Shown: in pieces, positions 5,775-35,625 of the stretch | How the letters are laid out: each line of letters opens with the position of its first letter | Numbering within the stretch: position 1 is the stretch's first letter | NCBI GenBank assembly: GCA_021513695.1 | Contig: CP084166.1 | Location: forward strand, 2,720,001-2,784,000 | DNA from: Candidatus Heimdallarchaeum aukensis | Lineage (GTDB): Archaea; Asgardarchaeota; Heimdallarchaeia; Heimdallarchaeales; Heimdallarchaeaceae | Direction: 5' to 3' | DNA length: 64,000 nt | Notes under the pieces: generated by a model | What the model saw: the letters and a program-made list of their open reading frames with translations, nothing else | Told to the model about the DNA's origin: nothing | The model's database searches: none | Translations under genes and position numbers: made by a program

Positions 5775-5801
5775 AAATAATATGAGTTTAGTAGAGAATA
5801 A

Positions 5802-6920: not shown

Positions 6921-6928
6921 TTTATAAA
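6921..6928 (+). promoter_or_regulatory. candidate archaeal TATA box (tttataaa) upstream of tbp
   Basis: TATA-like octamer about 25 nt upstream of where a transcript for the 6977 start would begin. Motifs of this kind are ambiguous in AT-rich DNA. Confidence 0.25.
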
Positions 6929-6976
6929 GGCTATAAAGAAATCGACATGAATTTAAAAAAAAGGTGTTTAAAACCA

Positions 6977-7552: not shown

Positions 7553-7636
7553 TTTTATTTTTCACTTATTTTTTTATTATACTTCTACATCACGTAAAAT
7601 CTTTGTTACTAAATTAATAACTTAATTCTTTTTTCT

Positions 7637-9223: not shown

Positions 9224-9241
9224 ACTTCACCACTACCACTT

Positions 9242-10744: not shown

Positions 10745-10863
10745 TTAATTTCAAAGACAATTTCCAGAGGAGTTTAAATAATTTAGCTTCTTTAAGATAT
10801 TTCTAGATATATGCCAGTAGAAAAATTAAGGAAAAAAAAAGAATAAATGTTAAAATGATCTAT

Positions 10864-11844: not shown

Positions 11845-12274
11845 TCCCCAGCAATAGGTAACCCCGAAACGATCTTCATCGTAAGTAGATGTAAATTGAA
11901 TATTAAGAAGAAATACTTCTTAGTATATTCAGATTTTTAACATCCAATGAAGATTGTTTATTAAACTAGTATTAACAATATAAATATATAATTATATCGT
12001 TTTTAGTTTAAATGAACTTCTTTTAAAGTTAAAATCGTTGAAAAAAAAATTAGAGGATTGAATTAGATGAAATTACAAGAAAAAAATCAAAAAAGAGGAA
12101 GAAAGAAAAACAAAAAAAAAGCTTTTAGTTAAATTGGGAGACTGCTACTTAAAAAGAATTATCTGAACCTATAAATAGAAAGTAATGCTTATAAATGCGT
12201 CTGGTTTTCGTTGTTATAGTTAGTATAAGGAAATTTATTGTTCAAAGTGAACAAAAAGAAAAAGGTGAAATTAT

Positions 12275-13282
12275 TTGAGTTTAAAAGGATATATACTCAG
12301 ACGAACAATCTACATAGTTCCTATTATGCTTGCAATTACACTAATGAACTTTACACTGATTAACATCAGTCCAGGAGATCCTGTTTTAGTAAGATTAGGA
12401 CTGATTAAATGTGAAACACCTGAATGTTACAACGCAGCGTACAACAAAGAAGCAATAGAAATGGGACTACTAGATAATAGTTTATACACTGTTCCATGGT
12501 TCGAAAGATATATAGATTTTGTAAATGATCTATTGCATTTCGACCTAGGAAAAAGCTGGTCATATACCCAAGCAGGAGAAGGGATACCGATATCGAAAAT
12601 AATTGGAGACCACGCAGTTTATACGGTGGTGCTAAACTTACTATCATTTGTTTTATCACTATTATTATCAACAGCAATAGGGGTAGTATCAGCAACAAGA
12701 CAAAACAGTTTCTGGGATAGAACACTAACAGTAGCAATGCTATTAGGATATTCTATGCCTTTGTTCTGGTTAGCAAAATTGTTAATGCTAGTGTCCTATT
12801 ATTTATTTAACTTTACAGGAGTAGCAAACAAATCGGCGTTTAACAAACCGTTAATACTGAACCCGATGTTCTATAAGTTCTTAATATTACCAACATTGTC
12901 ACTAACACTGGGTGGACTAGTGTTCATGGCAAGGTTAATTAGATCACAACTGCTGGAGATATTAAGACAAGATTACATAACAACTGCAAAATCAAAAGGA
13001 TTAGATAGAAGAGCAGTAATATACAAACACGCGTTCAGAAATGGTTTATTGCCTATAGTAACAATTATAGGAAATTCACTACCAGGATTACTATCCGGGT
13101 CAGTAATGGTTGAGTCAGTCTTCGGATGGCCAGGATTAGGAACAATATTCCTAGAAGCTGCATTTATGAGAGATTATCCAATGATGATGGCAACAAACAC
13201 AATATTTCCATTCCTGTTCCTAATAGCAAGATTGCTGACAGATATAACCTATGTCTTTATAGACCCGAGAATAAAATACTAA
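12275..13282 (+). CDS. dppB: ABC peptide transporter permease, DppB/OppB type
   Basis: Characteristic N-terminus YILRRTIYIVPIMLAITLMNF...SPGDPV and the BPD-transport core. TTG start 7 nt after GGTGA. Confidence 0.85.
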   Translation: MSLKGYILRRTIYIVPIMLAITLMNFTLINISPGDPVLVRLGLIKCETPECYNAAYNKEAIEMGLLDNSLYTVPWFERYIDFVNDLLHFDLGKSWSYTQAGEGIPISKIIGDHAVYTVVLNLLSFVLSLLLSTAIGVVSATRQNSFWDRTLTVAMLLGYSMPLFWLAKLLMLVSYYLFNFTGVANKSAFNKPLILNPMFYKFLILPTLSLTLGGLVFMARLIRSQLLEILRQDYITTAKSKGLDRRAVIYKHAFRNGLLPIVTIIGNSLPGLLSGSVMVESVFGWPGLGTIFLEAAFMRDYPMMMATNTIFPFLFLIARLLTDITYVFIDPRIKY

Positions 13283-13301
13283 AAGAGGAGAGTAAAGAAA
13301 A

Positions 13302-14363
13302 ATGGCAACAGTTGATAAAAAAGCAGTAGAAGAGGAAGGACCAATTCTAGATGAAACAACTTTAAAAGAAATTGAAAGCATGAAAGGAGCAGGACAATGG
13401 TCTATTGTATGGAGAAGATTGAAAAAGGATACAATGGGAATGGTAGGATTATACATTGTAACATTCCTAATATTGATGGCAATAGTGTCCTGGTTCTTAC
13501 TAATGTACGATAAATGGCTATTTAATAATGTAGCACTAACAAGAGATCCAGATAATCCATACTCACTAGCTAATCTATATGTAGACTTCTGGCTACCTGG
13601 AATGAAGGAACCAATAATACTGTTCCAACATCCAGAATGGCAATTCGCAGATCAAGTAAAATTGCCACCAAGCATTGAACACCCATTTGGAACAGATAAA
13701 AACGGAAGAGATATGTTCTCAAGAGTGTTCTTTGGAGCTACAATATCAATGGCTCTAGGTTTCATTGGACAAATGACAACCGTAATCATCGGAACAATTT
13801 TAGGATCACTTTCTGGATATTATGGTGGATTATTTGACGACATCCTACAAAGAATAGTAGAATTACTATACTCAATGCCTGGATTTATCTTGCTAGTGTT
13901 CGTAATCGTGCTATTCGAAAATACAAATATACCAGGAGGAAGATACGCAGTAGTAGTAATATTCTTCTCACTAATAAGCTGGGGAGGAACAGCACTTATA
14001 GTAAGATCGAACTTCTTCTCGCTAAAACAACAAGACTTTGTAGAAGCAGAAAAAGCACTAGGGGCAGCAGACATGAGAATAATATTCAGACATATACTAC
14101 CAAACTCACTAGCACCACTGATAATTATAATAACGCTAGGTATAGCAGGAACAATATTCACATTCGCAGCACTAGCATTCTACGGATTCGGAGACCCAAA
14201 CGTCGTTTCCTGGGGTGACGACCTTAACCGCTGGCAAAATGATCTCATGACTTATCCGTGGATGCCCATGTTTCCCGCTCTAATGATATTTTTCACAGTG
14301 TTGGGTTTCAACTTACTTGGTGACGCCCTTCGTGATGCTCTTGATCCTCGTTTGAAAGATTAA
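13302..14363 (+). CDS. dppC: ABC peptide transporter permease, DppC/OppC type
   Basis: EHPFGTDKNGRDMFSRVFFGATISM motif and six predicted TM segments. It follows dppB by 19 nt. Confidence 0.85.
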   Translation: MATVDKKAVEEEGPILDETTLKEIESMKGAGQWSIVWRRLKKDTMGMVGLYIVTFLILMAIVSWFLLMYDKWLFNNVALTRDPDNPYSLANLYVDFWLPGMKEPIILFQHPEWQFADQVKLPPSIEHPFGTDKNGRDMFSRVFFGATISMALGFIGQMTTVIIGTILGSLSGYYGGLFDDILQRIVELLYSMPGFILLVFVIVLFENTNIPGGRYAVVVIFFSLISWGGTALIVRSNFFSLKQQDFVEAEKALGAADMRIIFRHILPNSLAPLIIIITLGIAGTIFTFAALAFYGFGDPNVVSWGDDLNRWQNDLMTYPWMPMFPALMIFFTVLGFNLLGDALRDALDPRLKD

Positions 14364-14710
14364 ATTAATTCTTTTTTTCCTTTTTCAATTATTTTTTCAA
14401 CTATTTCTAAAAATAATAATACTTTGAGTTTAGATAGACTCTTGTAACTTTTAAGGAAGTAGAAGCGCTAATTTATCTCTTTCAATAAAATTATTCCAGA
14501 AAACAATTGACATTTATTTCCTATCCTGTTGTTCATCAAGCAGAATTTGAGCAACCTATGCTTATATAGCATGTGGAAAAGCTTATACAGAAGGCAGAAA
14601 AGCGACATAATTATTATAAATATCTGTAAGAAAATATAGTCGCTCAACTAGTGGAAAATGTAACAAGGGAGATAAAAAAATCATGCCTAAATTACTTAGG
14701 AAAAAAAATT

Positions 14711-15340
14711 ATGTATAAATTGCTGGGAAAATTATTAATACTAATATTACTGCTTCCAATACTTATTTTTCATGGTGTGTTATCAATTAGAGGTGCTCAA
14801 CCTGTTCTCGCTTCTAGAATTTCTGAGATTACTGAAATCACAATTTCTGAATCTACTGATAACCCTTTATTTGAAAATTATACTGCTTTTAAAATCGAAG
14901 CTGAAGTAGAGATCTTAAATAGAGCTGATGAAAATCAAACAGTTATTTCTCCTGATCTTAAACTTATGATTAATGCAAGCTTGGTTAATCAATCATTGAA
15001 GTTGGTAGTGGAAGCAATGGGTTCTTGTATGGTTACTTACGACACCTATTCTCCTGGTATCACTATTGAAAATCACTCTCTTAAATTCTATATTAATCAA
15101 ACGGATTTAAGTTATCTCCCTGATGGTAATTATACTCTCTGGAGACCTATTAATGGGGGAGAAGAATTACCTACGATTATTATAATTAAATCTGGTATAA
15201 TGAATATTACTTACAGTAGTTTTGGCAATCAAGAGACTGAAGCGGTGAGCTTTTTCCTTCTGTTTCCTTTAATGTTATTCCTTCCACTCTTTTCATATGT
15301 GATTGTCTTTTCTAAATGTAAAAAGTCAGAGATTGCTTAA
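14711..15340 (+). CDS. small secreted/surface-anchored protein (N-terminal signal/TM, C-terminal TM anchor plus basic tail)
   Basis: MYKLLGKLLILILLLPILIF hydrophobic N-terminus and a C-terminal FLLFPLMLFLPLFSYVIVFSKCKK anchor. Several N-x-S/T sequons. The track start at 14651 adds 20 non-hydrophobic residues. Confidence 0.5.
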   Translation: MYKLLGKLLILILLLPILIFHGVLSIRGAQPVLASRISEITEITISESTDNPLFENYTAFKIEAEVEILNRADENQTVISPDLKLMINASLVNQSLKLVVEAMGSCMVTYDTYSPGITIENHSLKFYINQTDLSYLPDGNYTLWRPINGGEELPTIIIIKSGIMNITYSSFGNQETEAVSFFLLFPLMLFLPLFSYVIVFSKCKKSEIA

Positions 15341-15385
15341 AAGTTTCTTAGAAAAAAAACCTTACCATTTTTTGTTAAATTTTTG
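15289..15385. repeat. ~95-bp direct repeat, copy 1 (3' end of the 14711..15340 gene plus downstream spacer)
   Basis: atgtgattgtcttttctaaatgtaaaaagtcagagattgcttaaaagtttcttagaaaaaaaaccttaccattttttgttaaatttttgcc matches 19472..19565 at about 90% identity. Confidence 0.8.
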
Positions 15386-15539
15386 CCTTTGTAATCATCT
15401 TATGTGCTCTTTAGGAATTATTTAAGAGATTATATGCGACAAAGGAGTTTTGTACTGACGTGGATGAAGAAGTACATAAATTTTTTAATGTTTTTGGGAA
15501 TATGATTTAAATCTTTATAATTGGAGGAAAATTGTTCTC

Positions 15540-16484
15540 ATGTTATCAGCTAGCAATATATCAAAAACATATCCGAATGGTATTAAAGCATTGCAAGACG
15601 TAAATCTTGAGGTTTCCGAAGGAGAGATAATGGGATTTATTGGCCTAAATGGTGCAGGAAAGACTACTTTTATTAAAATTGCGAATGGTGTGCTGCAAAA
15701 TGATACAGGTAACATTACGATATGTGGTATGAACCCCATATCTGAATTAAAAAAAATAACTCGTAAAATTGCTTGGATTCCTCAAGATGGTCTAAGAAAA
15801 TTCAACACATTTCTTTCTGGTCGTGATAATATAATCTATTTTTCAAGACTGAAGGGTATGAATTCCTTGCAGATTAATCAAAAGTTAGATGAACTCTTGG
15901 AGCATCTATGTCCAGCAAAGGATTTTATTGATAAGAAAATTTCAATTATGAGTGGAGGACAAAAGCAATTGTGCAATCTGTTAACGGGTTTTGTGTTAGA
16001 TAGCGAGTTTCTATTTTGTGATGAAATTTCAGTAAATATTGATCCTATAACCTTAGATAAGATCTACTCTTATTTGCGAGAATATGCATCAGAAGGTAAG
16101 TCTGTATTATTAACCTCACAAAATCTCCATGAAATTGAAGAGTTGTCAAACACTATCGCACTATTACACAAAGGAAAGATTATGCAGGTAGGAAAACCAA
16201 AGGACATATCCAATAAACTTCTAAAATATGAAATAATCGACATAGGGTTTGAAGAAAGAATGAAGGAACTGAATTCAATAAAAGATTTTAGCTTAAAACT
16301 GGAATCAATAGCTGATAAAATAATTATTGATAATGAAAAAAATTTGATACGTATTTATTGTGAAGATTCACTGAGCCTTTTACCTCAAGTAGTTGAGTTT
16401 CTAAAAGAGTATAACTTTGCTGCATCTATAGAAAGTGGTAAAGCTGATTTAACTAATGCAATTATAACTTTAGCGGGGAGATAA
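15540..16484 (+). CDS. ABC-2 type transporter ATP-binding protein
   Basis: Walker A GLNGAGKTT, signature MSGGQKQ and Walker B LFCDE. GGAGGA sits 10 nt upstream of the ATG. Confidence 0.85.
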   Translation: MLSASNISKTYPNGIKALQDVNLEVSEGEIMGFIGLNGAGKTTFIKIANGVLQNDTGNITICGMNPISELKKITRKIAWIPQDGLRKFNTFLSGRDNIIYFSRLKGMNSLQINQKLDELLEHLCPAKDFIDKKISIMSGGQKQLCNLLTGFVLDSEFLFCDEISVNIDPITLDKIYSYLREYASEGKSVLLTSQNLHEIEELSNTIALLHKGKIMQVGKPKDISNKLLKYEIIDIGFEERMKELNSIKDFSLKLESIADKIIIDNEKNLIRIYCEDSLSLLPQVVEFLKEYNFAASIESGKADLTNAIITLAGR

Positions 16485-16486
16485 CT

Positions 16487-17326
16487 ATGAAAACGTTTAT
16501 TGCGAACTTTATAACACAAATAAAATATTTTACTGGCCTCAGAGTCATATGGATTTCAAGGATCGTTTATGTTTTTGTATCCTTACTCACCTCATTTACA
16601 ATGGGTATGGTGTATAAATTTAATGAAGCAACACAAAATTTGATAGGTGTCCAAAATGTTGCTATATTTGTTCTTACTGGCTTTTTCTTGCAATTTTTAA
16701 TGAATGCAAGTTCAGGTTATACACCAGCAGCAGTTAGGGAGATGATACAAAATGGAAACCTTGAGTATTCAGTACATTGTGGAGCTAATATTGTTCAACA
16801 AATATTGGGTATATACATCGCTTCATATCTCTTCGATTTCGTTATTTGTTTGCCTTTCATTGTTACTTTGTCTCTCTTAACCATTAATACAATTTCAGTT
16901 TACGCTTTATTGTCTTTTATAGGTTTTCTCTTTATTTCAGGTTTGTGTCTTTTTTCTATAGGCTTTCTGTTTTCTTCTCTTTACGTTCTGAGCAAGGGAT
17001 TTCTTGGTTTTCATAGTGTGATTGCAAACATAGTCTACTTTATCTGTGGGGTCTATTTTCCAATACAAGGCTATTTAACTCTATTCGGTTCTGTGGGTGG
17101 CTGGATTGCCATAGCTATTGTGTCTATTTTTCCGTATACATATGTATTTGACCTATCACGTTATATGATTTTTCTCGGGCAAAATTATCAAACGTTTTTA
17201 CCTTTTGGTATTGAATTGATAATATTCATTTGTTCTTCAATTTTAATAATGCTTATTGCAATGCAACTATTCAAGTTAGGATTTAAAAGAATGAGAAAAA
17301 AAGGTTTCATAAGTTTTATCTACTAA
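16487..17326 (+). CDS. ABC-2 type transporter permease
   Basis: Polytopic membrane protein of six TM segments, translationally coupled to the upstream ATPase by a TAACTATG junction. Confidence 0.7.
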   Translation: MKTFIANFITQIKYFTGLRVIWISRIVYVFVSLLTSFTMGMVYKFNEATQNLIGVQNVAIFVLTGFFLQFLMNASSGYTPAAVREMIQNGNLEYSVHCGANIVQQILGIYIASYLFDFVICLPFIVTLSLLTINTISVYALLSFIGFLFISGLCLFSIGFLFSSLYVLSKGFLGFHSVIANIVYFICGVYFPIQGYLTLFGSVGGWIAIAIVSIFPYTYVFDLSRYMIFLGQNYQTFLPFGIELIIFICSSILIMLIAMQLFKLGFKRMRKKGFISFIY

Positions 17327-17451
17327 TTCTAAATTTTCATTTTTCCCTTATTTTTTCTTATTCTTCCTTTTTCTTGATTTTTAGATTGTTTTTACTGCAA
17401 CTTATTAAGTAACAATTAAAAATAATAAAACTAATTATCTCTTGATTAAAC

Positions 17452-19464
17452 GTGCGTGATAATTTTTTCTTTCTTAGAAGGTTAAATCTTTTGGGTAAAC
17501 TTGAGAAGTTCGATAAATATTTTTCTTCTATTGATTGGACTTCTATTTTGGATGAAATCAATGAACGCTTGTTTTTTTTTGGTGGAGGTTATAGTCGCAT
17601 TCTTGATTTATTTTCTGCTACTCTCATTGAACGTGGTATTTGGTTTGATTCTCGTTATTATATGAGCAATAAAGTTCTTAAAATTGTCTTTAAGGTTTTA
17701 TCTCAGTTTGCAGATAACAACCTTATTTTTTCTTTAGTTTCTGCTTTGGATGACTACGATTCTGATGTTCGTGCTGCTGTTGCTGAGCTGTTAGGTCTAA
17801 TTGGCCATTCTCTTGCTGTTGACCCCTTAATCAAATTACTCAAAGATGAGAATTGCTTTGTTCGCAGTAGTGTTGTCATAGCTTTGGGTAAGCTTGGTGA
17901 TCCTCGCTCCATTGCTGCATTTAATGATATTGCCTTATATGATGATTCCCAGGGTGTGCGTGCCGATGTTATACGATCCTTGAGAGAGATAGGTGATCCT
18001 CTTGGTGTTTCCCTTCTAATCGAAGCCCTAAAAGATGAGGATAGTATTGTTGTAAGAGCTGCTTTAGAAGTCTTGCTAGAATTGGTTGATTCTGGTTCTG
18101 TTGAGTTATTAATAGAAGCTCTAAAAGATAGGCATTGGTTTGTTCGCAGTAGTGTTGCAGAAGCGTTAGGCAAAATAGGAGACCCTAGAGCCATTGACTC
18201 CCTAGTAGCTGCCTTGAAAGATAAGGATTATTTTGTTCGCAGTAGTGTTGCAAAAGCTTTAAGTAAAATGGACGATTCTAGAGCCATTGACTCCCTAGTA
18301 GCTGCCTTAAAAGATAAAGATTTGCGAATGCGTCGTATTGCTGCAGAAGTGTTGGGAGAAATAGGTGACTCTAGGGCAGTTGAACCCTTAATAGATGTAG
18401 CTCTAAAAGATGAGGGTTTTTTTGTGCGTGAAAAAGCTATAATACTGTTAGGTGAACTAGGTGATTCTAGAGCAGTCAAGCCCTTAATAGAATTACTAAA
18501 AGATGAAGATTGGGAAGTGCGTCGTAATGTTGCAACAGCGTTGGGTAAAATAGGTGACCCTAGAGCCATTGAACCATTAATCAATGCAACTCTATATGAT
18601 GGTAATTGTGAAGTGTGTTATTTTTCTAAAGAGTCACTGATAAAAATAGGTGATATGAGTGCCGTTGAACCTCTAATAGAAGGACTGAAAGATAAGCATC
18701 CTTCTGTTCGTTGTGTTGCTGCTGAAGTGTTAGGTGAACTAGGTGATTCTAGAGCTGTCAAGCCCTTAATAGAATTACTAAAAGATGAAAATAGGAAAGT
18801 GCGTTGTGATGCTGCAGAAGCGTTAGGTAAAATAGGTGACCCTAGAGCCATTGAACCATTAATCAATGCAACATTATACGATGATGTTTTTCATGTGCGT
18901 AATAATGCTGCCTCGGCACTGAGAGAAATAGGCGTTTCTAGTGCTGTTGAACCATTAGTTAAACTAGCCTTATATGATGAAGATTCAGAAGTGCGTAAAA
19001 ATGCTGCTTATGCTTTAGGTGAAATATGTAATCCTAATGTCGTTGACCCATTAATCGATGCAGACCTATATGATGATGAGGAAGTGTGTGAAAATGCTTC
19101 CTCTGAGTTAGGTTTAAGATGTGATCCTAGTTCAGCTGAATTATTAGTAAATTTAACACTCTATGAGGAGGATTCAGTAGTGCGTGCAAGAGCTTTAAAT
19201 TTATTGGTTCAAATACGTGATTCAATTGCAATAGAAAAATTAATCAATATAGTGCTGTATGATGAAGATTCAGAAGTGCGTAAAAATGCCGCAAAAGCCT
19301 TAGGTGAGATAGGTGATACAAATTCATTTGAAACATTAATAATGAATGCCCTAGATGATGACGAGGGGAAAGTGACTAAAAATGTTGAAGAAGCTGTAAG
19401 AATAATGGGCGATCCTGAATTAATTGAATCACTAGAAGATGCCCTATTAAATAAGAGTTGGTAA
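17452..19464 (+). CDS. HEAT-repeat (PBS-lyase HEAT-like) protein, about 18 tandem repeats
   Basis: About 31-aa units such as VRxxAAEALGKIGDPRAIEPLIxALKDxD reiterate from residue ~95 to the C-terminus. The start is uncertain: GTG at 17452, with the first in-frame ATG far downstream. Confidence 0.8.
   Translation: MRDNFFFLRRLNLLGKLEKFDKYFSSIDWTSILDEINERLFFFGGGYSRILDLFSATLIERGIWFDSRYYMSNKVLKIVFKVLSQFADNNLIFSLVSALDDYDSDVRAAVAELLGLIGHSLAVDPLIKLLKDENCFVRSSVVIALGKLGDPRSIAAFNDIALYDDSQGVRADVIRSLREIGDPLGVSLLIEALKDEDSIVVRAALEVLLELVDSGSVELLIEALKDRHWFVRSSVAEALGKIGDPRAIDSLVAALKDKDYFVRSSVAKALSKMDDSRAIDSLVAALKDKDLRMRRIAAEVLGEIGDSRAVEPLIDVALKDEGFFVREKAIILLGELGDSRAVKPLIELLKDEDWEVRRNVATALGKIGDPRAIEPLINATLYDGNCEVCYFSKESLIKIGDMSAVEPLIEGLKDKHPSVRCVAAEVLGELGDSRAVKPLIELLKDENRKVRCDAAEALGKIGDPRAIEPLINATLYDDVFHVRNNAASALREIGVSSAVEPLVKLALYDEDSEVRKNAAYALGEICNPNVVDPLIDADLYDDEEVCENASSELGLRCDPSSAELLVNLTLYEEDSVVRARALNLLVQIRDSIAIEKLINIVLYDEDSEVRKNAAKALGEIGDTNSFETLIMNALDDDEGKVTKNVEEAVRIMGDPELIESLEDALLNKSW
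17750..19330. repeat. DNA-level tandem ~93-bp repeats encoding the HEAT units
   Basis: Nearly identical nucleotide blocks recur, for example ggtgaccctagagccattgaaccattaatcaatgcaac at about 18560 and again at about 18836. They produce long spurious antisense ORFs. Confidence 0.7.
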
Positions 19465-19471
19465 ATGTGAT

Positions 19472-19565
19472 ATGTGCTTGTTTTTTCTAAATGTAAAAAA
19501 TCAGAAACTGCTTAAAAGTTTCTTAGAAAAAAATCTTACCTTTTTTGTTAAATTTTTTCTTTTCT
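19472..19565. repeat. ~95-bp direct repeat, copy 2
   Basis: atgtgcttgttttttctaaatgtaaaaaatcagaaactgcttaaaagtttcttagaaaaaaatcttaccttttttgttaaattttttc matches 15289..15385. Confidence 0.8.
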
Positions 19566-19597
19566 CTTTCCTTTCTCTTCTTTTTTGCTAACTTTTG

Positions 19598-19810
19598 TTA
19601 ATACCTGAATCTTTCTCTAGATTTTAAATAAATTTCCATCAGTTTTGGTTTTTTTGACGCTCTATCCATTAGTTCTTCAATTTCTTTCTTTGGTTGTCCT
19701 TTTTCTGCTTTAATTCTTGATGTAGTAACGATCACATAAATTAACATCGCAGTAATAGCTAAAAAACCTCCAAAAACGATTATACCGAAGGCTACTATTA
19801 CTATATTCAT
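19598..19810 (-). CDS. small single-TM membrane protein (70 aa), paralogue 1
   Basis: MNIVIVAFGIIVFGGFLAITAMLIYVIVTTSRIK..., a TM helix plus a K/E-rich tail. About 75% identical to the ORF at 20082..20297. Confidence 0.5.
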   Translation of the reverse strand: MNIVIVAFGIIVFGGFLAITAMLIYVIVTTSRIKAEKGQPKKEIEELMDRASKKPKLMEIYLKSRERFRY

Positions 19811-19860
19811 CGAATAATAATAGCTTTCAACAATTAAATACTTTTGGAAAAAAGGTATAA

Positions 19861-20080
19861 TTAATTATCTCTTAATTTTTTGTTCATATGCCTTCATTAG
19901 TTCCTTAAAGCTTCTTCTTTTGTAATATCTTTTGGATTTAAGGTAAGTGTTCCATCGTTTATCGCTTTTTCTGTTATTTCTTCTAGCTGTTCTTCTTTTT
20001 CTCCCTCCTCTTTCAATGTTTTTGGTAATTTTGTTAATTAACCTTTCTTGAAGTTCTTCTACTTTTTTTTACTGACTTAT
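19861..20080 (-). pseudogene. decayed duplicate of the 3' end of the Fe-alcohol-dehydrogenase gene
   Basis: The nucleotide sequence parallels 20341..20560 (adh C-terminal ~70 codons) at roughly 85% identity, but in-frame stops break the ORF. Confidence 0.6.
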
Positions 20081-20081
20081 G

Positions 20082-20297
20082 TTAAAACCATAATCTTCCC
20101 TTATACTGTAAATAATTTTCCATTAATTTTGTATTTTTTGCTGCTCTATCCATTAATTCTTCAATTTTCTTTTTTGGTTGTCCTTTTATTGGTTTGATTC
20201 TTGATGTCGTAGCAATTAGATAAATTAATATCGACATAATAGCAAAAAAGCCTACAAAAACAATTACTCCAAAGGCTACTATTAGTGAACTCATCAT
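20082..20297 (-). CDS. small single-TM membrane protein (71 aa), paralogue 2
   Basis: MMSSLIVAFGVIVFVGFFAIMSILIYLIATTSRIK..., immediately downstream of adh on the same strand. Confidence 0.5.
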   Translation of the reverse strand: MMSSLIVAFGVIVFVGFFAIMSILIYLIATTSRIKPIKGQPKKKIEELMDRAAKNTKLMENYLQYKGRLWF

Positions 20298-20360
20298 ATA
20301 ATAATAGTATTCGACAGTTATATACTTTTGGAAAAAGGGTATTAATTATTTCTTAATTTT

Positions 20361-21542: not shown

Positions 21543-21556
21543 TTTTTTCACCTTTA

Positions 21557-23935
21557 TTAAATGTTAAAAGGAATTGAGAATAAATATAGGTAAATTCTAA
21601 CAATATATCTCTTCATTAAATTAATAGTAGGTATTTTTCGCATTATTCTTTTTGCAATAATTCTTGGAAAAAGATAGGTTTCTGTGATATTTAGGCAACG
21701 TATTAGAGACATAGCAATTTGAGTATCTCCTTTAACTTTTATTGCATTAGATGCATAAGCATGATGTATGCCTTTCTGAGCAGTCATTAACTCAAAAGCA
21801 GCGTCTATAGTTCTAAAAGTAATAACTAGATCTGCTTGTTTTTCTGGAATCTTTTGAGGATTTAAGACTCCTTTTTTATTCTTTAAAAGCCCTAAACTAG
21901 TTTCATAGTTATCTACATTAAATAAAATCTTGAAATTTGTTGGCCAAGATCTAATCTCTTGCTTAATATTAGAATCAATAGTTGATAATGTCTTCATTGC
22001 TCTTCCTAAAATTGTAAAAACTAAAGATACTATTCTTTCTTTAATTCTCTTAGGTTTAGGTTGGAATCCTTCTTCTATTCCTAACTTTTTCATGACCTTT
22101 GCTGTTGGGACACCGTTTCTTGAATAACCTCTAATCTTGTAATACTTTTCTTGCATCTCTTCTAAGGGGACAACTTTTTTCTTTTTATCGCTCTCTCTTC
22201 CTTCATTTAGGAATCGTTCAGGAAGAGTATCATCTATTCTTGAGACACCTATCAAGGTGTTCATATATCTTTCTAGAATATGAATTCTTTCACCTGCTTT
22301 GAGAAAATCACGAGAACTTTGTTTTATTCCAGTTACAGTTTCAAATAATTTAGAGTAAATACTTATATCTAATACTTTTTGCGTTATTCTTGGAAAATAG
22401 CTAATAAAGATTTTCAGAAATATTTTTGGCGGATACTTTGCTATTGGTGCTTCTAACATAAAGGCATAAGAAGTAAAAATACATAATTGTAGTGAATTAA
22501 TTGCTGAAAAGAGATTTTCCATGTAATAAACAAACTGTGCTTTAGCTCGCTTCGATTCTCCTTTAAGAAAATTGAAAAATGCTTCTAGGGTGAATAATGA
22601 TGCAGAAAGGTGACACGCTCCTCTATTTGCAACACTGTAGGATAGCCCTTGTCCCCAACATCCTCTTGGATCATATCCTGAAAATTCTAGACCTTTAATA
22701 TTCATTGCAAATCCTTTTCCACCATATTTTTCTGCTAGCCTTTTAGTTCCAAGGGCTAACTCTTCTCCTATTCCTTTTCTGTATGCAATGTCATAAAGTA
22801 TTTCAGAAACTCCTTCTGGAGAACCAAATTTTAGTGGAAAAGAAAAGAGATTTTTCTCATTAGCTTCTATGGCATATGCTAATGTTACAGATATAGAAAT
22901 AGTATCTAATCCTAATCTTGAACAAATTTCATTCCATTCAGCAATTTTTTCAGCATCATATATCTCTAGATTAGAACCAAATAAACTTGTGGTCTCATAT
23001 TCTGGAGCTTGAATTAATTTACCGTTGAACATTCCTTTATGTCCACAGAGGATTGCACAGTTCCTGCAAGAGCTGTATTTCTTATAGAATTCGGACTTTA
23101 ATCTTTCACCATACAGTTCACTAGCTTTTTCGCTCATACCTTTTGTGAAATTGCGAACTGGTAAGATCTTTTTTTCGTTACATATCCTAAAACCAGCGTT
23201 TGTGCCATAATTTCTGTATAAATCTGAAGTATATTCGTTTCTATTAATATACTTAATTGCTTTTCTTTTTATTTTCATGTATTTCTTTTCTTTTTTTGGT
23301 TTTATTCTGAAAGAACCTTTTTCAACAACAATAGCTTTAAGGTTTTTAGCTCCAAAGACAGCTCCTATTCCTCCTCTACCAAAAAATCTGTGTCCAGAAG
23401 CTACATTGGCATAAAGAACCCTATTTTCTCCTGCAGGACCAATAACTAGATTCCCTTTATTTTTTGCTTCTAGTAATTCTTGAGTCTCAAAGATATCTTT
23501 ACCCCAAATTTTAGAAGCACTGTTAAATGAAACACCGTTTTCTGTAATAGATAGATAAGTTGGTTCTTTTGCTTGCCCTTTTATTATTACTCCGTCATAA
23601 CCTACAGATTTCAAGAAAAACGCAAATGACCCTCCACAAGATGAAGAAACTATTAAACCTGTAAGCGGAGATTTAGTAACAGCAGCAAAGCGAGAAGAAT
23701 TGGGTGCACCAGTTCCAACCATTACTCCACCAAAGATGGCAATAATGTTATCTTCACCTAAAGGGTCACAAGACAGATCCATCTTTTTATATAGATAGTA
23801 AATGGCTAATCCCTTTCCTCCGAGATAAAGTTTTCTTTCTTCATTACTTATAGAAACTGTTGTAAAAGCTTTCTTTGTAAGATCAATCTCAAGTAGTTTG
23901 TTGTGAGACCCTAAAATCAACCTAGGACTAGTCAT
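21557..23935 (-). CDS. aor: tungsten-type aldehyde:ferredoxin oxidoreductase with C-terminal SCP2 sterol-carrier-like domain
   Basis: N-terminal LGGKGLAIYYLY...APNSSRFAAVTKSPLTG and the CRNCAILC 4Fe-4S motif. The FETVTG...KAGERIHILERYMNT...DTLPERFLNEG segment also matches the AOR family. Residues ~630-760 (NPQKIPEKQADLVITFRTIDAAFELMTAQKGIHHAYASNAIKVKGD) match the SCP2 fold consensus (ADxTITMxDxDFLALMTGKLNPQxAFxxGKLKIKG). Confidence 0.85.
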   Translation of the reverse strand: MTSPRLILGSHNKLLEIDLTKKAFTTVSISNEERKLYLGGKGLAIYYLYKKMDLSCDPLGEDNIIAIFGGVMVGTGAPNSSRFAAVTKSPLTGLIVSSSCGGSFAFFLKSVGYDGVIIKGQAKEPTYLSITENGVSFNSASKIWGKDIFETQELLEAKNKGNLVIGPAGENRVLYANVASGHRFFGRGGIGAVFGAKNLKAIVVEKGSFRIKPKKEKKYMKIKRKAIKYINRNEYTSDLYRNYGTNAGFRICNEKKILPVRNFTKGMSEKASELYGERLKSEFYKKYSSCRNCAILCGHKGMFNGKLIQAPEYETTSLFGSNLEIYDAEKIAEWNEICSRLGLDTISISVTLAYAIEANEKNLFSFPLKFGSPEGVSEILYDIAYRKGIGEELALGTKRLAEKYGGKGFAMNIKGLEFSGYDPRGCWGQGLSYSVANRGACHLSASLFTLEAFFNFLKGESKRAKAQFVYYMENLFSAINSLQLCIFTSYAFMLEAPIAKYPPKIFLKIFISYFPRITQKVLDISIYSKLFETVTGIKQSSRDFLKAGERIHILERYMNTLIGVSRIDDTLPERFLNEGRESDKKKKVVPLEEMQEKYYKIRGYSRNGVPTAKVMKKLGIEEGFQPKPKRIKERIVSLVFTILGRAMKTLSTIDSNIKQEIRSWPTNFKILFNVDNYETSLGLLKNKKGVLNPQKIPEKQADLVITFRTIDAAFELMTAQKGIHHAYASNAIKVKGDTQIAMSLIRCLNITETYLFPRIIAKRIMRKIPTINLMKRYIVRIYLYLFSIPFNI

Positions 23936-24078
23936 TTTTTTTAAAAGAAAAGAACTTGTTTAAATTTTTTTGTACTGGTAACGGAAATATTATGGTTTTC
24001 TATATTGGTAGAACTCAAAGAGAGAAAGTGAAAAAAAATGAAGAAGCAAACAAAAAAAGAAAAAAGAAAAAAAGGAGT

Positions 24079-27021
24079 TTAGTTAGTTTTAGCGAAAACA
24101 AGACCTTTTTTCTTGAGTAATAGCAGTATTACTGTAATAAGACCAATGCCGCCCACTGCAGCTAGAGGAATAATATACATTAATGGATTAATTTCTTTTT
24201 CTACACTGTAATTTATTTCAAATATTTCAGTTTCTGTAGTTAAAGATGAGTCATCAGTTGCACTTATCTTGAAAATTAAGGTTCCTGATTTTTTGGGTAA
24301 TTCTATGTCAAAGAAGTAACAATCTGTCTCATTGTTGTAAAGCATTGTTTCAACCATCCATTCATCTTCTGTAGCAAATTTGTAAGAAAACAGGACATTT
24401 GTTATATTTCCATCATCGGTCACATTAGCTCTGATTCTTATCGCTTTTTCTTCTAGGACTAAAGGAGAAGAGAATGACGTATCTAACACGATAATTATTG
24501 GAGCTAAAGCTTTTGTAAACTCTATAATGGTAATATTAGATTCTGAAGAAAATCCAGCAAGATCATATGCTCTTACTTTGTATGTCAAGTTCCCTGAAGA
24601 AATAATGACCGGTATCGAAACTGTGTATAAAGATATAGAAGAGTCATATTTCATTGAAAGTATTTTCCAATCGCTTTCTTCATCAAATGTGTAATAAACT
24701 TCTACTGTAAGTAATCCTCCTTTATCTGTGACATTTGCTTGAACTTCAATATCATAACCCCCAGCTAGGTCAAGAGGACTTGTAATAGGAATTAGACTAA
24801 TATTTGGAGCTAATCCATCTGAATAATAACTAAAGGTAGAACTATTAACTGAGTTATCTAATGCGTCAGTTAAGGTAATATAAAATAGAACATCTGTATC
24901 CATATTTGTTCTGGGGATAGTAGAAATAAATTCATAACCTATTGGAATAGTATAATGCTTTAATACAATCTCATAATTTATTACAGAACCAGAATATAAA
25001 TCAGAATAATCTGTAATTTTTAGAGTGAAATTAGCTTCTGTGAAGTCAGATTGAGTTAACCCAAGTTCTAGTAAGTCGATGCTTAAAGTAAAACTTGTTG
25101 GTCTAGTTTCTCTATCAAAAATCAAAAATTCTCTTCCATCATCTAATTCTAACCAGATTCTAATATCTGCAGATTTCTCGTGAGTGATGTCAACGTTTAG
25201 TGTTGCTTCTGATACTCCTCCTCCTCTTTCAACATTTAAAGTTACAAGTGTTGTACTATTGTCTTCAATTAAGGCAGGTAAGTCTACAGCAGTAAAAGTT
25301 TCCATATAATCCATAAAAGAATTGTAGTTTATGACATAGGATATTGTGTTGTTCCACGTTATTCCTCCATCTGTACTATACCAAACAACAGAAGTTTTAA
25401 GGTCTGTGTAGTCGGTCGCATTAAATAACACTTGGACATCGGTAATATTTGAGATTACTGGGGGGTTAACAAGTAGTTTGCCCAAAATAGGTGCTGCACC
25501 ATCAGCATAATAGAAGTTGACTGAAGTGTTCCCCACATTGTCAAAAAAGTCATAAGTTTCAAAGAAGTACTCAACAAACGTTGTTTCGTTTGTTTCAGGT
25601 AGAATAACTGTAAAAGTTGTGGGGGATGTTCCTTCTTCTATTGGCGTTGTATTGACCATCTGTTTTCTTAAGAAAGTTGTTCCGTTAGGCATTGAGTATA
25701 AAATATCAACTCTTTTTGTTCCTGAAGGGTCAACAAATTTTGCAGTAATATTAACTTCTGAACTTGTTAATGTTACATTTTCTATTCCTGGAATAGATAT
25801 TCCGCCATAAATTGAAATTGAATTTACTCTGGGATTCATGTTATCTACTATGGCGGTTTTTAATCCAGATGATCCCTCTCTTCCTTTTTTAGAGTCAACT
25901 ATATCTGAAGCATTTATCATGTATAGAAGATTAGCTTCTACATTAGAAATATCGTCTATTTGAAGTGTTGTACGGTAACTTGCCGCTGTACTACTTAAAT
26001 CTGTCAAATATTCAAAGTTTTGCGATTTATAGTCTTCCTCACCTTCAATCTTATAGTATAAAGTTACACTAGTATCATTAATCGTTTCTACTCCATCATA
26101 ATCCGTAACTGTGACATTAAATACAAAACCAGTGTCTGCATTAATAACTGTTGGTACTTCATGAATGGTAATCTTGGGGGTCCAATCCATAAGAAATGTG
26201 TATGTTTCACTGGTCATTGAATTATTGAATAGATCAAACGAGGTAACATAATATTCAACCCAAGTGGGAGTGTTAGTTGTGACGCTAGGTGGAGTTATAT
26301 CTCCACTAAAATATTCTTCATATATACGCAAGTAATTAAATACTGGGTCATTTACATTAGGATGATCTCCAATATGTGTGATCGCAAATATCTTATATCC
26401 TAATACAGATTCTGTGCTATCATAATCTACAGGAAATGGTGAAACTTCTTCTGTCCCTCCATATGATCCATCAATATATCTTTGTTCCCATGTTTCTGAA
26501 GTAATATTAAAGGCTTCAATTGAGACATAGACAAGATTGTTACGACTTGTTTCCTTATCAATTGAGCAATATATTCTCTTTATTACATCTCCTTCATTAG
26601 CTATGAAAATGTATTCACCATATCTCCATTCTGTTTTATCATTCGTTTTGATTCCAGTGTCAGTTATGTATCCTGTTGATTCAAACTCTGTCTCATCCAC
26701 AACTAGTTGTAAATCTCTACTCATCGAAGCGTTAAACAAAGTATCGTTTAGTGAAATATACTTCCACCACAGAGTAGCATTCCTTATTTCATCTGAATCA
26801 CTTATTGTCAAAGAAACCGTTGCTGTTTCATTGCTATTTGGAGCATCAGGACTAACCTGTGGTGTTCCGAAGAAACTATATTCTGAACTGAATTTTATAG
26901 GTGTTTCTCTGTCTAAAGTTCGGTTTGAAGATAAGTAAATATTCAGCGATACTTCTACACTAGCAGTTATTAAGACAGCTGTAATTAAAATAATTTGGCT
27001 AAATTTCTTTAATTCTTTCAT
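24079..27021 (-). CDS. large cell-surface (S-layer-like) glycoprotein, N-terminal signal peptide and C-terminal TM anchor
   Basis: A signal-like N-terminus FSQIILITAVLITASVEVSL, dozens of N-x-S/T sequons, and a C-terminal LMYIIPLAAVGGIGLITVILLLLKKKG TM plus basic tail. No enzymatic motifs. Confidence 0.6.
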   Translation of the reverse strand: MKELKKFSQIILITAVLITASVEVSLNIYLSSNRTLDRETPIKFSSEYSFFGTPQVSPDAPNSNETATVSLTISDSDEIRNATLWWKYISLNDTLFNASMSRDLQLVVDETEFESTGYITDTGIKTNDKTEWRYGEYIFIANEGDVIKRIYCSIDKETSRNNLVYVSIEAFNITSETWEQRYIDGSYGGTEEVSPFPVDYDSTESVLGYKIFAITHIGDHPNVNDPVFNYLRIYEEYFSGDITPPSVTTNTPTWVEYYVTSFDLFNNSMTSETYTFLMDWTPKITIHEVPTVINADTGFVFNVTVTDYDGVETINDTSVTLYYKIEGEEDYKSQNFEYLTDLSSTAASYRTTLQIDDISNVEANLLYMINASDIVDSKKGREGSSGLKTAIVDNMNPRVNSISIYGGISIPGIENVTLTSSEVNITAKFVDPSGTKRVDILYSMPNGTTFLRKQMVNTTPIEEGTSPTTFTVILPETNETTFVEYFFETYDFFDNVGNTSVNFYYADGAAPILGKLLVNPPVISNITDVQVLFNATDYTDLKTSVVWYSTDGGITWNNTISYVINYNSFMDYMETFTAVDLPALIEDNSTTLVTLNVERGGGVSEATLNVDITHEKSADIRIWLELDDGREFLIFDRETRPTSFTLSIDLLELGLTQSDFTEANFTLKITDYSDLYSGSVINYEIVLKHYTIPIGYEFISTIPRTNMDTDVLFYITLTDALDNSVNSSTFSYYSDGLAPNISLIPITSPLDLAGGYDIEVQANVTDKGGLLTVEVYYTFDEESDWKILSMKYDSSISLYTVSIPVIISSGNLTYKVRAYDLAGFSSESNITIIEFTKALAPIIIVLDTSFSSPLVLEEKAIRIRANVTDDGNITNVLFSYKFATEDEWMVETMLYNNETDCYFFDIELPKKSGTLIFKISATDDSSLTTETEIFEINYSVEKEINPLMYIIPLAAVGGIGLITVILLLLKKKGLVFAKTN

Positions 27022-27297
27022 TATTTTAACCTTTTATAGTTTACTAGTACATAGTTACTTTTCTTACATATATAAGGTAACTTCTCCAAAAAAGTAAAGT
27101 TTGTCTCTTAAACGAAGAAAAATAAGTAAAGTGGAATAATTCCTTAAAAAACTAGTATATTTTTATTTTCTAATTAAAGTAAATTATTAATAAGATTACT
27201 ATCTTTCAAAAAAGTTATAAAGTTCTGTAGTTTTTACGTTTATAACAAGGTAAAGCATTAAGATAAACTTATGCAAATGAAAATTTAAAGTGATTTT

Positions 27298-28347
27298 ATG
27301 AGTGTAAGAGCACCGGAAGATATTCTACTAGAAGTAAAAGGCTTAAAAACCTACTTCTTTACAGAAGAAGGAGTAGTGAAAGCTATAGAATCAATTAATT
27401 TTGTTGTTTATAAATCAGAAACATTAGGGCTAGTAGGAGAATCTGGATCTGGAAAAAGTGTAACTGCTCTAAGCATCTTAGGAATAGTACCGGACCCACC
27501 GGGAAAAGTCCTTGAAGGTGAAGTTATTTTCCATGGTCAAGATTTACGTAAATTAAGCCCTGCTGAAATGCGCAAAATCAGAGGAAACCAGATTGCCCAA
27601 GTATTTCAAGATCCAATGACCTCTTTGAACCCTGTTTTCACTGTTGGAGACCAAATCGGAGAAGCTATTATTCTTCATCAACAAGTTTCAAGGAAGGAAG
27701 CTAGAGAAAAAGCTATCAAAATTATGTCTCTTGTTGGTATTCCTTCTGCAGATGAACGTGTTGATAACTATCCCTTTGAGTTCTCAGGAGGTATGCGCCA
27801 AAGAGTTATGATTGCTATGGCTCTCAGTTGTAATCCTGAGCTTCTCATCGCAGACGAACCTACAACAGCTTTAGACGTAACTATTCAAGCTCAAATTCTC
27901 GAGCTTCTAAAAGCAACCAGTGAAGAGTTCGACATGAGTATTATTCTTATTACACATGATATGGGTGTTATTGCAGAGATGTGTGATCGTGTAGCAGTCA
28001 TGTATGCAGGGTATATTGCTGAAGTTAGCGACATAATGACTATTTTCAAGTCTCCTTTGCATCCTTATACCAAAGGTTTGCTCGGAGCTATTCCTCGTCC
28101 TGATGCGAAAAGAGAAGACTTGACGATTATTAGAGGAAGTATTCCTAATCTTATTAATCCTCCATCTGGATGTCGTTTCCATCCTCGATGTGATTACTGG
28201 ATTAAAGGCTTATGTGAAGTGAAAGTTCCTGAGTTTATAGAAATTGAACCAGGACATGAATTAATGTGCCACTTATACACTGAAGAAGGTAAAGCTTATC
28301 TGGAAGCTCACAAAGACCACCCCAGAATATCTTATGCAGCAAAGTAG
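27298..28347 (+). CDS. dppD: ABC peptide transporter ATP-binding protein DppD/OppD type
   Basis: Walker A GESGSGKS, signature FSGGMRQR, Walker [13 protein letters not shown] and the C-terminal oligopeptide-ABC Cys-rich extension. Confidence 0.9.
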
Positions 28348-28358
28348 GTGAATAAAGA

Positions 28359-29564
28359 ATGTCAACACCATCTATTATAGAAAAATTACAAGCAAAAAAA
28401 GGAAAAGATGCAAGAATTAAAACTAAAGAACTCGAGGAAGATGTTGTTCTCGAAGTTGAAAATTTAGCTAAATACTTTAAAATCCCTAATCCTATGGATA
28501 CAACTTGGTTCTTAGTTGCTTTTGTAGCCTCATTAGTAATATTCGCATTTTTCAAAATTATTGGACTTATTCTTATAGGATTGATTATTCTAGCTTATTT
28601 CATTATACCTTATATTCCACCATTCAATAAAAGACCAAAATTTGTTTATCTGAAAGCAGTTGATGGTCTAAACCTTAAAATTAGAAAACAAAAAATTGTA
28701 GGTCTTGTAGGAGAAAGTGGATGTGGAAAGAGTACAGCAGCTAGAACTATTTTACGTCTTCTCGAACCAACCAAAGGTTCTGTTTATTTCAGGGGTATAG
28801 ACATCAACAGATTAACTTCTGATGAATTAAAAGAAATGAGAAGATATATGCAGATAGTGTTTCAAGATCCTTATGCCAGTCTTAACCCAAGAGCAACAGC
28901 TTTTGATATTATATCTGAACCATATATCATTCATGGAGTAGCTTCTGGAGACGAAATAAGTATTAATGTTCTCAGATTGTTAAAGGAAGTAGGATTAGCT
29001 CCTCACCACGCTTACAGATATCCTCATGAGTTCTCTGGTGGTCAAAGACAAAGAATAGGAATTGCTCGTGCTTTAGCTTTAGAGCCTGATTTCATCATCA
29101 TGGACGAACCTGTAAGTAACTTAGACGTTTCTGTAAGAGCAGCAATTATTCAACTAATTCTAAAATTACAACAAAAAATGGGTTTGACTTATCTATTTAT
29201 TGCTCATGATCTTGCACTAGTTCGTATCCTCTGTGATGAAGTAAATGTTATGTATCTCGGAAAACTAATGGAAGCTGGAACAAGCGATGAAATCTTCGAG
29301 GATATGAAGCATCCTTATACAAAAGCTTTAGTTTCTGCAGTTCCAATAGCTGACCCAACAAAAAGATCTAAGAAAATATTCTTACAAGGAGATATTCCTA
29401 CACCAATTAATCCTCCACCAGGTTGCCGTTTCCAAACTCGATGTCCTCTTGTGAGTGACATCTGTCGAGCTGAAGATCCTAAACCTAAATATTTCAGTAA
29501 AACACATGTTGTATATTGCCACAATGTTGAGGGTGGAGAAGATTCTCCAAACGCTTTTGAATAA
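28359..29564 (+). CDS. dppF: ABC peptide transporter ATP-binding protein DppF/OppF type with ~55-aa hydrophobic insertion
   Basis: Walker A GESGCGKST, FSGGQRQR and IIMDEPVSNLD. Residues ~44-97 (TTWFLVAFVASLVIFAFFKIIGLILIGLIILAYFIIPYIPPF) are inserted between the first beta-strand and the P-loop. Confidence 0.85.
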   Translation: MSTPSIIEKLQAKKGKDARIKTKELEEDVVLEVENLAKYFKIPNPMDTTWFLVAFVASLVIFAFFKIIGLILIGLIILAYFIIPYIPPFNKRPKFVYLKAVDGLNLKIRKQKIVGLVGESGCGKSTAARTILRLLEPTKGSVYFRGIDINRLTSDELKEMRRYMQIVFQDPYASLNPRATAFDIISEPYIIHGVASGDEISINVLRLLKEVGLAPHHAYRYPHEFSGGQRQRIGIARALALEPDFIIMDEPVSNLDVSVRAAIIQLILKLQQKMGLTYLFIAHDLALVRILCDEVNVMYLGKLMEAGTSDEIFEDMKHPYTKALVSAVPIADPTKRSKKIFLQGDIPTPINPPPGCRFQTRCPLVSDICRAEDPKPKYFSKTHVVYCHNVEGGEDSPNAFE

Positions 29565-29653
29565 AACTTTCTTTTTTCCTTTTCAACCTTTTTTAAATAT
29601 AGCATAATTCTTATATTACTTATTATTATATTTCAATTGTTAAAATAAAATGC

Positions 29654-30421: not shown

Positions 30422-30432
30422 GAGGAATAAGA

Positions 30433-35464: not shown

Positions 35465-35625
35465 ATATTTAGTTTCAATATCTTCAATTTGAAAGATTTT
35501 TTCTATTTTTTCTTTTTATATACTCTTTTTTTGATATTTTTTGAATTATTTGTAAAATCTGCCTATCTCTTCACTGTAACCTTTTAGAGATATTGTTAAC
35601 CCTTCATATCGGAATATTTAAATTT

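Follow-up and report, generated by a model that had tools for sequence, protein, structure and literature searches.

Stepwise insertion of native genes as the likely origin of a split dppBCDF-type transporter locus in Candidatus Heimdallarchaeum aukensis

The stretch of DNA considered here, a window of 64,000 nucleotides from Candidatus Heimdallarchaeum aukensis (contig CP084166.1, positions 2,720,001 to 2,784,000 of the forward strand), carries the four genes of a peptide-type ATP-binding cassette (ABC) transporter in two halves that lie 12.9 kb apart, and the question raised by this locus is how the halves came to be separated and what the separation means for the transporter. The answer that we consider likely is a stepwise insertion of native genes where two pre-existing transcription units meet. 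The four transporter genes are as follows:

12275-13282, plus strand: dppB-like permease, 335 aa (Pfam BPD_transp_1, E=3.8e-34)
13302-14363, plus strand: dppC-like permease, 353 aa (Pfam OppC_N and BPD_transp_1)
27298-28347, plus strand: dppD-like ATPase, 349 aa (Pfam ABC_tran and oligo_HPY)
28359-29564, plus strand: dppF-like ATPase, 401 aa (Pfam ABC_tran and oligo_HPY)

Pfam, NCBIfam and the list of open reading frames (ORFs) bear out the initial annotation of this DNA, which had placed dppBC (12275-14363) and dppDF (27298-29564) on the same strand and in canonical order; the dppC stop and the dppD start are 12,934 bp apart, and all four genes are co-oriented and intact. PF00528 scored above the gathering score on the dppB and dppC proteins, as did PF12911 on dppC, while PF00005 and PF08352 were matched on both ATPases. 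The top NCBIfam models were Opp2B, Opp4C, OppD and DppF-like, and since every score fell below the equivalog cut-off 'dpp' is used here as a family label only and not as a substrate assignment. By their domain content the four products are the predicted membrane and ATPase parts of one ABC importer of the Opp/Dpp/Nik family (PepT). The set resembles dppABCDF and oppABCDF of E. coli (PepT, TC 3.A.1.5) in its two BPD_transp_1 permeases, one of them with an OppC_N segment, its two oligo_HPY ATPases and its B-C-D-F order on a single strand, and differs from them in that coiled-coil genes follow dppF, that BC and DF appear as separate transcription units, and that a family-5 binding-protein gene was found neither in the window nor in the fetched flanks of relatives. 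The last point agrees with the initial annotation, to which no substrate-binding gene had been evident: SBP_bac_5 was matched neither among the window ORFs of at least 150 aa that were scanned by Pfam (a check from which six ORFs of 156-196 aa, at 34874-35464, 35604-36167, 40183-40728, 41068-41580, 41570-42040 and 44085-44627, were left out) nor among Pfam-annotated ORFs in the fetched contigs, and the dpp flanks fetched from the relatives examined (up to 10 kb per side, less at contig ends) contained no binding-protein gene. Such a gene may lie elsewhere in the 3.08-Mb genome.

For comparison, DppC scans of genome and metagenome contigs provided a set of 18 Heimdall-group loci (L-numbers designate contigs), and the closest other genome to the window was that of H. 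endolithica PR6 (CP084167.1), which has an average nucleotide identity (ANI) of 88% with H. aukensis (PMC8813620). The dppB protein is 99.4% identical to that of H. endolithica, dppC has orthologues of 74-79% identity in other Heimdall-group lineages, dppD is 82-88% identical to the dppD of relatives and 100% identical at the amino acid level to that of contig L044, and dppF shares 75-78% identity with the dppF of relatives; the dppBCDF set has been passed down vertically within the Heimdall group. The ratio of non-synonymous to synonymous substitutions (dN/dS) was 0.009 for dppB and 0.036 for dppC as compared to H. endolithica, and 0 for dppD and 0.11 for dppF as compared to L044, with stop-free reading frames throughout and a synonymous divergence that reaches 0.44 in these comparisons. 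All four genes are kept by strong purifying selection, and it would therefore be wrong to call the transporter disrupted; its separated halves are presumably still functional. Codon usage is most atypical in dppB and dppC among the 44 window genes compared, and these two also show the highest or near-highest GC content at third codon positions (GC3), 0.30.

Wherever a Heimdall-group contig extends far enough, the order B-C-D-F was found on one strand. Both halves are present on one contig in ten other lineages (L005, L007, L008, L010-L013, L054, L055 and L058), and in these the distance from dppC to dppD is 0.36-4.3 kb, with the following spacers:

L007, L008 and L054: about 0.36 kb, no gene in the spacer
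L005 and L010-L013: 1.3-1.5 kb, one conserved 262-aa ORF
L058: 2.7 kb, the 262-aa ORF and a DegV gene
L055: 4.3 kb, the 262-aa ORF, a DUF2341 surface protein and a 227-aa anchored protein

A large gap was encountered only in the sister species H. endolithica (L004) and in contigs L044-L046, which share 95% DNA identity with H. endolithica over adh-aor (genes described below), and the content of the gap is partly different there. The initial annotation had taken the intervening DNA for an insertion, or a series of insertions, into an ancestral operon, and had named the occurrence of the same intervening genes in relatives as the finding that would speak to the contrary; the distant relatives were found to lack them. 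Independent short-read assemblies contain both junctions with 100% identity (L001, equivalent to window positions 3302-18214, and L051, equivalent to 25462-29795), which rules out faulty assembly as the source of the split. Lineages whose spacers measure 1.3-1.5 kb surround L055 and L058, and insertions at the spacer between dppC and dppD are thus demonstrably derived in these two. Gene order across the group marks this spacer as an apparent site of recurrent insertion.

The boundary itself carries signals which suggest why genes could be accommodated there, and the features concerned, together with the genes that follow dppF, are:

14372-14397, plus strand: oligo-T tracts T7, T5 and T6 just after the dppC stop, a putative archaeal terminator
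27215-27221, plus strand: TTATAAA, TATA-box-like, about 80 nt before the dppD ATG, a putative promoter
29654-31197, plus strand: orf255 and cc254, coiled-coil proteins (tblastn identity of 36-45% at the same position in relatives)

In archaea, promoters are built on TATA/BRE elements and transcripts terminate at oligo-dT. All 12 lineages compared have runs of five to eight T's no more than approximately 30 nt from the dppC stop, and when the 160 nt before dppD are aligned the sequence TTATAA (window 27215-27220) is invariant in 8 of 8 lineages irrespective of what lies upstream, the sole other invariant element being AAAGTGATT-TATGAGT around the dppD start codon. A Shine-Dalgarno-like GTGAT motif precedes dppD in the same number of lineages (8/8). 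Downstream, eight relatives have sequence beyond dppF; orf255 follows in all eight and cc254 in six, and by this conserved position the two genes appear to belong to the DF unit. Because of the conserved oligo-T after dppC and the TATA box before dppD, dppBC and dppDF-orf255-cc254 were probably already separate, adjacent transcription units before the expansion, and a spacer between two units can accept DNA without polar effects and without either unit being broken. The notion of an insertion series was retained, as the histories of the inserted modules differ (see below), while the term 'operon' for the ancestral state is probably too strong. A scan of the spacer between dppC and the next gene, sp229, for bacterial-type promoters and terminators was uninformative for an archaeon. 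The coiled-coil genes orf255 and cc254 gave weak SMC-like matches, and the relatives in which one or both of them follow dppF include L005, L007, L010-L013 and L055.

Ten genes lie between dppC and dppD, and the intervening genes, direct repeats and tandem duplication listed in the initial annotation were all recovered with the ORF list, Pfam and repeat searches:

14651-15340, plus strand: sp229, 229 aa, with hydrophobic N- and C-terminal segments in its translation
15295-15390, plus strand: direct repeat copy 1, comprising the last 46 nt of sp229 and about 50 nt downstream
15540-16484, plus strand: ATPase of an ABC-2 exporter (exporter matched by Pfam ABC_tran and NCBIfam drrA-like)
16487-17326, plus strand: permease of the same ABC-2 exporter
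17452-19464, plus strand: HEAT/PBS-lyase repeat protein, 670 aa (Pfam HEAT_2, E=7e-114)
19470-19563, plus strand: direct repeat copy 2, directly after the HEAT stop
19573-20067 and 20057-20554: the two copies of a tandem duplication of about 484 bp
19598-19810, minus strand: sm70, membrane ORF of 70 aa, paralogue of sm71
20082-20297, minus strand: sm71, membrane ORF of 71 aa, paralogue of sm70
20361-21551, minus strand: adh, iron-containing alcohol dehydrogenase, 396 aa (Pfam Fe-ADH and ADH_Fe_C)
21557-23935, minus strand: aor, aldehyde:ferredoxin oxidoreductase, 792 aa (Pfam AFOR_N, AFOR_C and a weak C-terminal SCP2)
24079-27021, minus strand: surf980, 980 aa, with N- and C-terminal transmembrane helices, divergent to dppD

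The pair of direct repeats is approximately 95 nt long, and two matches were obtained in none of 100 shuffles. The HEAT gene also contains intragenic 93-nt repeats (period 93 in TRF). On the minus strand, one copy of the tandem duplication consists of sm70 and a decayed adh 3'-end (19903-20037) and the other of sm71 and the real adh 3' end. The protein sp229, which is probably surface-anchored judging from its terminal segments, had no Pfam or NCBIfam match and no relative in the loci of other lineages or in viral contigs; it is present in both Heimdallarchaeum species, with 87% amino acid identity to the H. endolithica copy.

Comparison of this block with its sister species and with other lineages points to a mosaic whose modules have different histories, rather than to one island. 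In the H. endolithica-type order (L004, L044-L046) dppC is followed, after an interval, by sp229-sm70-sm71-adh-aor-surf980 and then by dppD-dppF-orf255-cc254. The 4.08 kb at 15390-19470, with the ABC-2 ATPase, permease and HEAT genes, are absent at this site in H. endolithica, where the approximately 95-nt repeat that bounds the module in the window is single-copy (L004 15421-15514); the repeat sequences offer too few diagnostic sites to tell an insertion here from a deletion there. H. endolithica has instead 3.2 kb between dppC and sp229 that carry an inverted HEAT gene, thus on the other side of sp229, whose product is just 47% identical to that of the window, as compared to 87-99% for the neighbouring genes. 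The tandem duplication is common to both species. Other parts of the block are housed elsewhere in relatives: aor orthologues of 57-65% identity lie downstream of SHMT on the Heimdallarchaeaceae contigs L123 and L124, with adh (65% identity) following aor in L123 and L124 stopping inside aor; the surf980 homologue of the L123 assembly is on a separate contig, L043, between TldD/PmbA and a GH38 gene, and further surf980 homologues adjoin GPP34 and a HEAT gene, or a gene for a beta-lactamase fold; and ABC-2 homologues of approximately 46-51% identity occur in unrelated contexts, one such pair (46% identity, L120) belonging to the same metagenome-assembled genome (MAG), JAEOSZ01, as a near-contiguous dpp locus (L012). 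The cargo of the spacer is unrelated between lineages, with no homology detected between sp229 and the 227-aa protein of L055 or between surf980 and a 582-aa protein of L055, which indicates independent insertions.

Taken with the boundary signals, these comparisons suggest the following history. The starting layout would have been a dppBC unit ending in oligo-T, followed by dppDF-orf255-cc254 with its own TATA-box promoter, and 0.36 kb or more of non-coding DNA would have separated the two units, a spacer that would have been filled with different genes in different lineages. In the Heimdallarchaeum lineage the spacer would have been widened stepwise to approximately 12-13 kb as native genes relocated to it and local duplication took place: the aor-adh pair, which in relatives stands after SHMT, the gene for a multi-Ig surface protein, sp229 and the HEAT-repeat gene would have arrived, as would a small membrane-protein gene that was later tandemly duplicated along with the adh 3' end, and in H. 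aukensis only, the 4.1-kb ABC-2/HEAT module bounded by the approximately 95-nt direct repeats would have been added. Each transporter half would have kept using its pre-existing signals throughout. Gene identities, the gene order in relatives, the mosaic content of the block, the repeats, the selection on the four genes and the conserved motifs are demonstrated; the terminator and promoter roles of the motifs, the direction of change and the mechanism of recombination are what we infer, and the reading as a whole, stepwise insertion of native genes at a pre-existing transcription-unit boundary, is put forward with fairly good confidence.

Several observations weigh against it. At the outer boundaries of the block a target-site duplication, an att site and a recombinase are all absent. 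The dppD side of the H. endolithica locus was read via contig L044 (95% DNA identity), and not from the PR6 genome. In two distant lineages (L038 and L040) a surf980 homologue stands beside an Fe-ADH, an SCP2 protein and an AOR, which hints that part of the block could be an older association and is a mild caveat. A movement of the block as one unit, suggested by this surf980-ADH-SCP2-AOR neighbourhood, was considered and rejected, as the adh and aor products there are only 31-33% identical and the orthologues of 57-65% identity are those that follow SHMT; the neighbourhood is best regarded as a family-level resemblance. The nearest bacterial DppC relatives, L017 and L022 (MAG contigs with B-C pairs, 38-41% identity), have no DppD/F-type ATPase downstream of B-C in the approximately 10 kb and 4.6 kb available, so that adjacency of B-C and D-F should not be assumed from the outgroups. 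Finally, a neighbour-joining tree of DppB and DppC, rooted with bacterial outgroups, showed three clades, namely Heimdallarchaeum, the lineages with short spacers and those with the 262-aa ORF (including AB_125), but their branching is weakly supported: 55% of bootstrap replicates joined Heimdallarchaeum with the 262-aa-ORF clade as against 43% with Heimdallarchaeum sister to all others, and parsimony on this tree alone would be compatible with an ancestral wide gap and deletion elsewhere.

The last two points lead to the alternative that survives best, in which the wide BC...DF layout was ancestral to the Heimdall group and the short spacers arose by deletion in the course of genome streamlining. 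If Heimdallarchaeum were sister to all sampled lineages, one deletion would be as parsimonious as one insertion; the outgroups with B-C and no D-F nearby are in keeping with an ancestral gap, and the formation of operons through deletion of intervening genes has been documented (Price et al., PMC1480536). Against this, two independent deletions would be needed in the 55% of replicates that join Heimdallarchaeum to the 262-aa-ORF clade, the parts of the block have other conserved homes (SHMT-aor-adh, surf980 in four other contexts, and the ABC-2 pair), the block is unlike even between the two Heimdallarchaeum species, and the spacers of the other clades hold no remnants of block genes. These features of the block, together with the derived state of the L055 and L058 insertions at the same spacer, favour insertion here over deletion elsewhere, and an ancestral wide gap is accordingly considered unlikely.

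A bolder proposal would have the spacer between dppC and dppD act as a Heimdall-group recombination hot spot at which mostly membrane and surface genes are deposited independently of a recombinase, perhaps via the approximately 95-nt repeats, with the dppBCDF-orf255-cc254 set, which lacks a binding protein, maybe serving a non-canonical, surface-linked role; we give this little credence.

A further possibility is that the 12.9 kb entered the operon in one event, as a single mobile genomic island or as an integrated element of which a remnant is left. Heimdallarchaeum genomes are rich in transposases, integrases and integrated elements (PMC8813620), the direct repeats of the 4.1-kb sub-module overlap the 3' end of a gene in a manner resembling an att duplication, and the nucleotide identity between the two species is higher in the block (92.8%) than in the left flank (85.4%) or genome-wide (ANI of 88%). 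The block shares with the described integrative elements of Heimdallarchaeum (HeimV1/V2, HeimM1/M2 and aloposons; Wu et al. 2022, PMC8813620) that it is lineage-specific DNA which differs between two closed genomes and that one of its sub-modules has direct repeats overlapping a gene 3' end; it differs from them in having no integrase, transposase, tRNA target, viral genes or giant ORFs, and its cargo consists of ordinary metabolic and surface genes of native composition. The dpp locus is not discussed in Wu et al. 2022 (PMC8813620). The ORFs of 40 aa or more in 14300-27300 include neither an integrase nor a transposase, and Pfam detected no recombinase domain in the annotated genes, while the non-coding gaps of the block are all below 300 bp and thus too short to hide a recombinase gene. 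No repeats pair the 14.4-kb and 27.2-kb ends, a tRNA scan found no tRNA gene in the window, and an Rfam scan of the whole window returned no match. Scans of viral contigs with the two block proteins chosen, the ABC-2 permease and sp229, retrieved no relatives of either.

Composition gave no more encouragement to the idea of a single island. The discontinuities that might have been expected at 14.4 and 27.2 kb if the DNA were inserted, as the initial annotation had suggested, did not materialise in GC, GC skew, GC3 or codon-usage distance; changes in GC skew at these positions track gene orientation only, and the GC content (0.31-0.37), GC3 (0.18-0.28) and codon usage of the block are within the range of the window. 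The inserted DNA therefore looks native and not foreign. As, in addition, the modules of the block are found in separate places in relatives, a single island is judged to be very improbable, and the mosaic make-up of the block is better accommodated by stepwise insertion.

There remains the 980-aa surface protein, which the initial annotation had allowed might be the cognate family-5 binding protein. The protein surf980 is 100% identical to K9W45_12125, and sequence searches of Pfam, NCBIfam and the PDB returned no match to it. Its AlphaFold2 (AF2) model, built with 12 homologues, has a mean pLDDT of 78.7 and is all-beta, with beta-sandwich domains in unbroken succession between predicted N- and C-terminal transmembrane helices, and the best 50 matches in a Foldseek search against the PDB were all strings of Ig, FN3 or macroglobulin domains. 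With neither an SBP_bac_5 signature in the Pfam scan nor a two-lobed alpha/beta domain in the AF2 model, surf980 is, on the modelled fold, a multi-Ig-like surface protein and not a family-5 binding protein. That surf980, or sp229, is the substrate-binding component of the transporter, so that the layout is functional and the cluster undisrupted, is effectively refuted and has next to no probability: surf980 is extracellular and membrane-anchored like archaeal binding proteins, it stands head-to-head with dppD and no family-5 gene was found in the window, but the predicted fold is wrong, six of six surf980 homologue contexts examined outside Heimdallarchaeum are without an Opp/Dpp-type transporter, and the fetched flanks of near-contiguous dpp loci contain neither surf980 nor a substrate-binding protein.

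Stepwise insertion at the boundary between BC and DF implies no new mechanism or biology, and the locus is an archaeal case of documented gene-order evolution that is set apart only by size, a stepwise history and the recurrence of insertion at one spacer. Insertion accounts for 11 of 66 split operon pairs in E. coli (Price, Arkin and Alm 2006, PMC1480536), and the 'dead operon pairs' of that study resemble the present case in that both members of a pair that stands side by side in relatives have been kept, close together and in the same orientation, with unrelated genes in between. The differences are the archaeal host, a gap of 12.9 kb with 10 genes that was built in several steps, and the position of the split at a terminator/promoter-like boundary, such that a transcript was perhaps never interrupted. 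The locus is not confined in its expansion to this one spacer: [BC], [DF-orf255-cc254] and a gene for a 992-aa PPDK-like protein are found in unchanged order and orientation in every clade, and the PPDK-like gene lies approximately 3 kb past cc254 in relatives as compared to 28 kb past it here (59087-62065), so that the backbone from BC to the PPDK-like gene spans approximately 11 kb in relatives versus approximately 50 kb in the window. The whole region is stretched at several inter-unit boundaries. An 11-kb backbone enlarged to some 50 kb by native genes at transcription-unit boundaries offers a worked example of gene-order erosion in an Asgard lineage in which genome expansion is under study, and annotators should be aware that a criterion of 'complete operons' would miss the dppBCDF transporter.

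The second expansion, at 31198-59086, comprises approximately 28 kb between cc254 and the PPDK_N/response-regulator gene, where relatives have approximately 3 kb with a GDH gene. It contains fer319, GPP34, sulfotransferase, TauE and MFS genes, lacks the GDH gene, and includes at 40-51 kb a complex-I-like operon with four antiporter-like subunits. Two genes of the region are eukaryote-like, namely an Arf-family small GTPase directly upstream of dppB (10864-11844, minus strand) and a homologue of GPP34 (Golgi phosphoprotein 3) at 32376-33038 (minus strand). In other clades dppB is preceded by an ABC ATPase and not by the Arf gene, and the left flank has thus also been rearranged in Heimdallarchaeum. 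Contig L057 carries a partial second dppB (2-901) directly upstream of a complete dppB (1161-2165), representing a tandem duplication.

Within the block, the 792-aa aor product belongs to a subfamily of approximately 800 aa whose C-terminal SCP2-like extension also occurs outside Heimdallarchaeum. Its closest named matches outside Heimdallarchaeaceae are bacterial (Anaerolineaceae, Thermodesulfobacteriota and Desulfosoma) and share 44-49% identity in alignments that cover 99% of the length, and an inter-domain transfer of aor is possible on these similarities.

The divergence between the two Heimdallarchaeum species is itself a mosaic. In a comparison of window positions 3312-25021 with L004, the synonymous divergence (dS) was 0.68-0.85 in the left flank (TPR, HisRS and Arf), 0.40-0.44 in dppBC and 0.09-0.33 from sp229 through adh, with 0.61 for surf980, the values for aor and surf980 being those obtained against L044 and not PR6. 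As compared to L044 a switch in divergence is located at approximately 27175: surf980 has 80-90% DNA identity (dS of 0.61) and adh-aor 93-97%, while from this position on, from dppD to cc254, identity rises to 99-100% with a dS of 0.007-0.05. The switch also concerns L047, and over adh-aor L044 is nearer to H. endolithica than to the window. This pattern suggests that Heimdallarchaeum populations have exchanged DNA by homologous recombination, with a candidate breakpoint in the spacer between surf980 and dppD.

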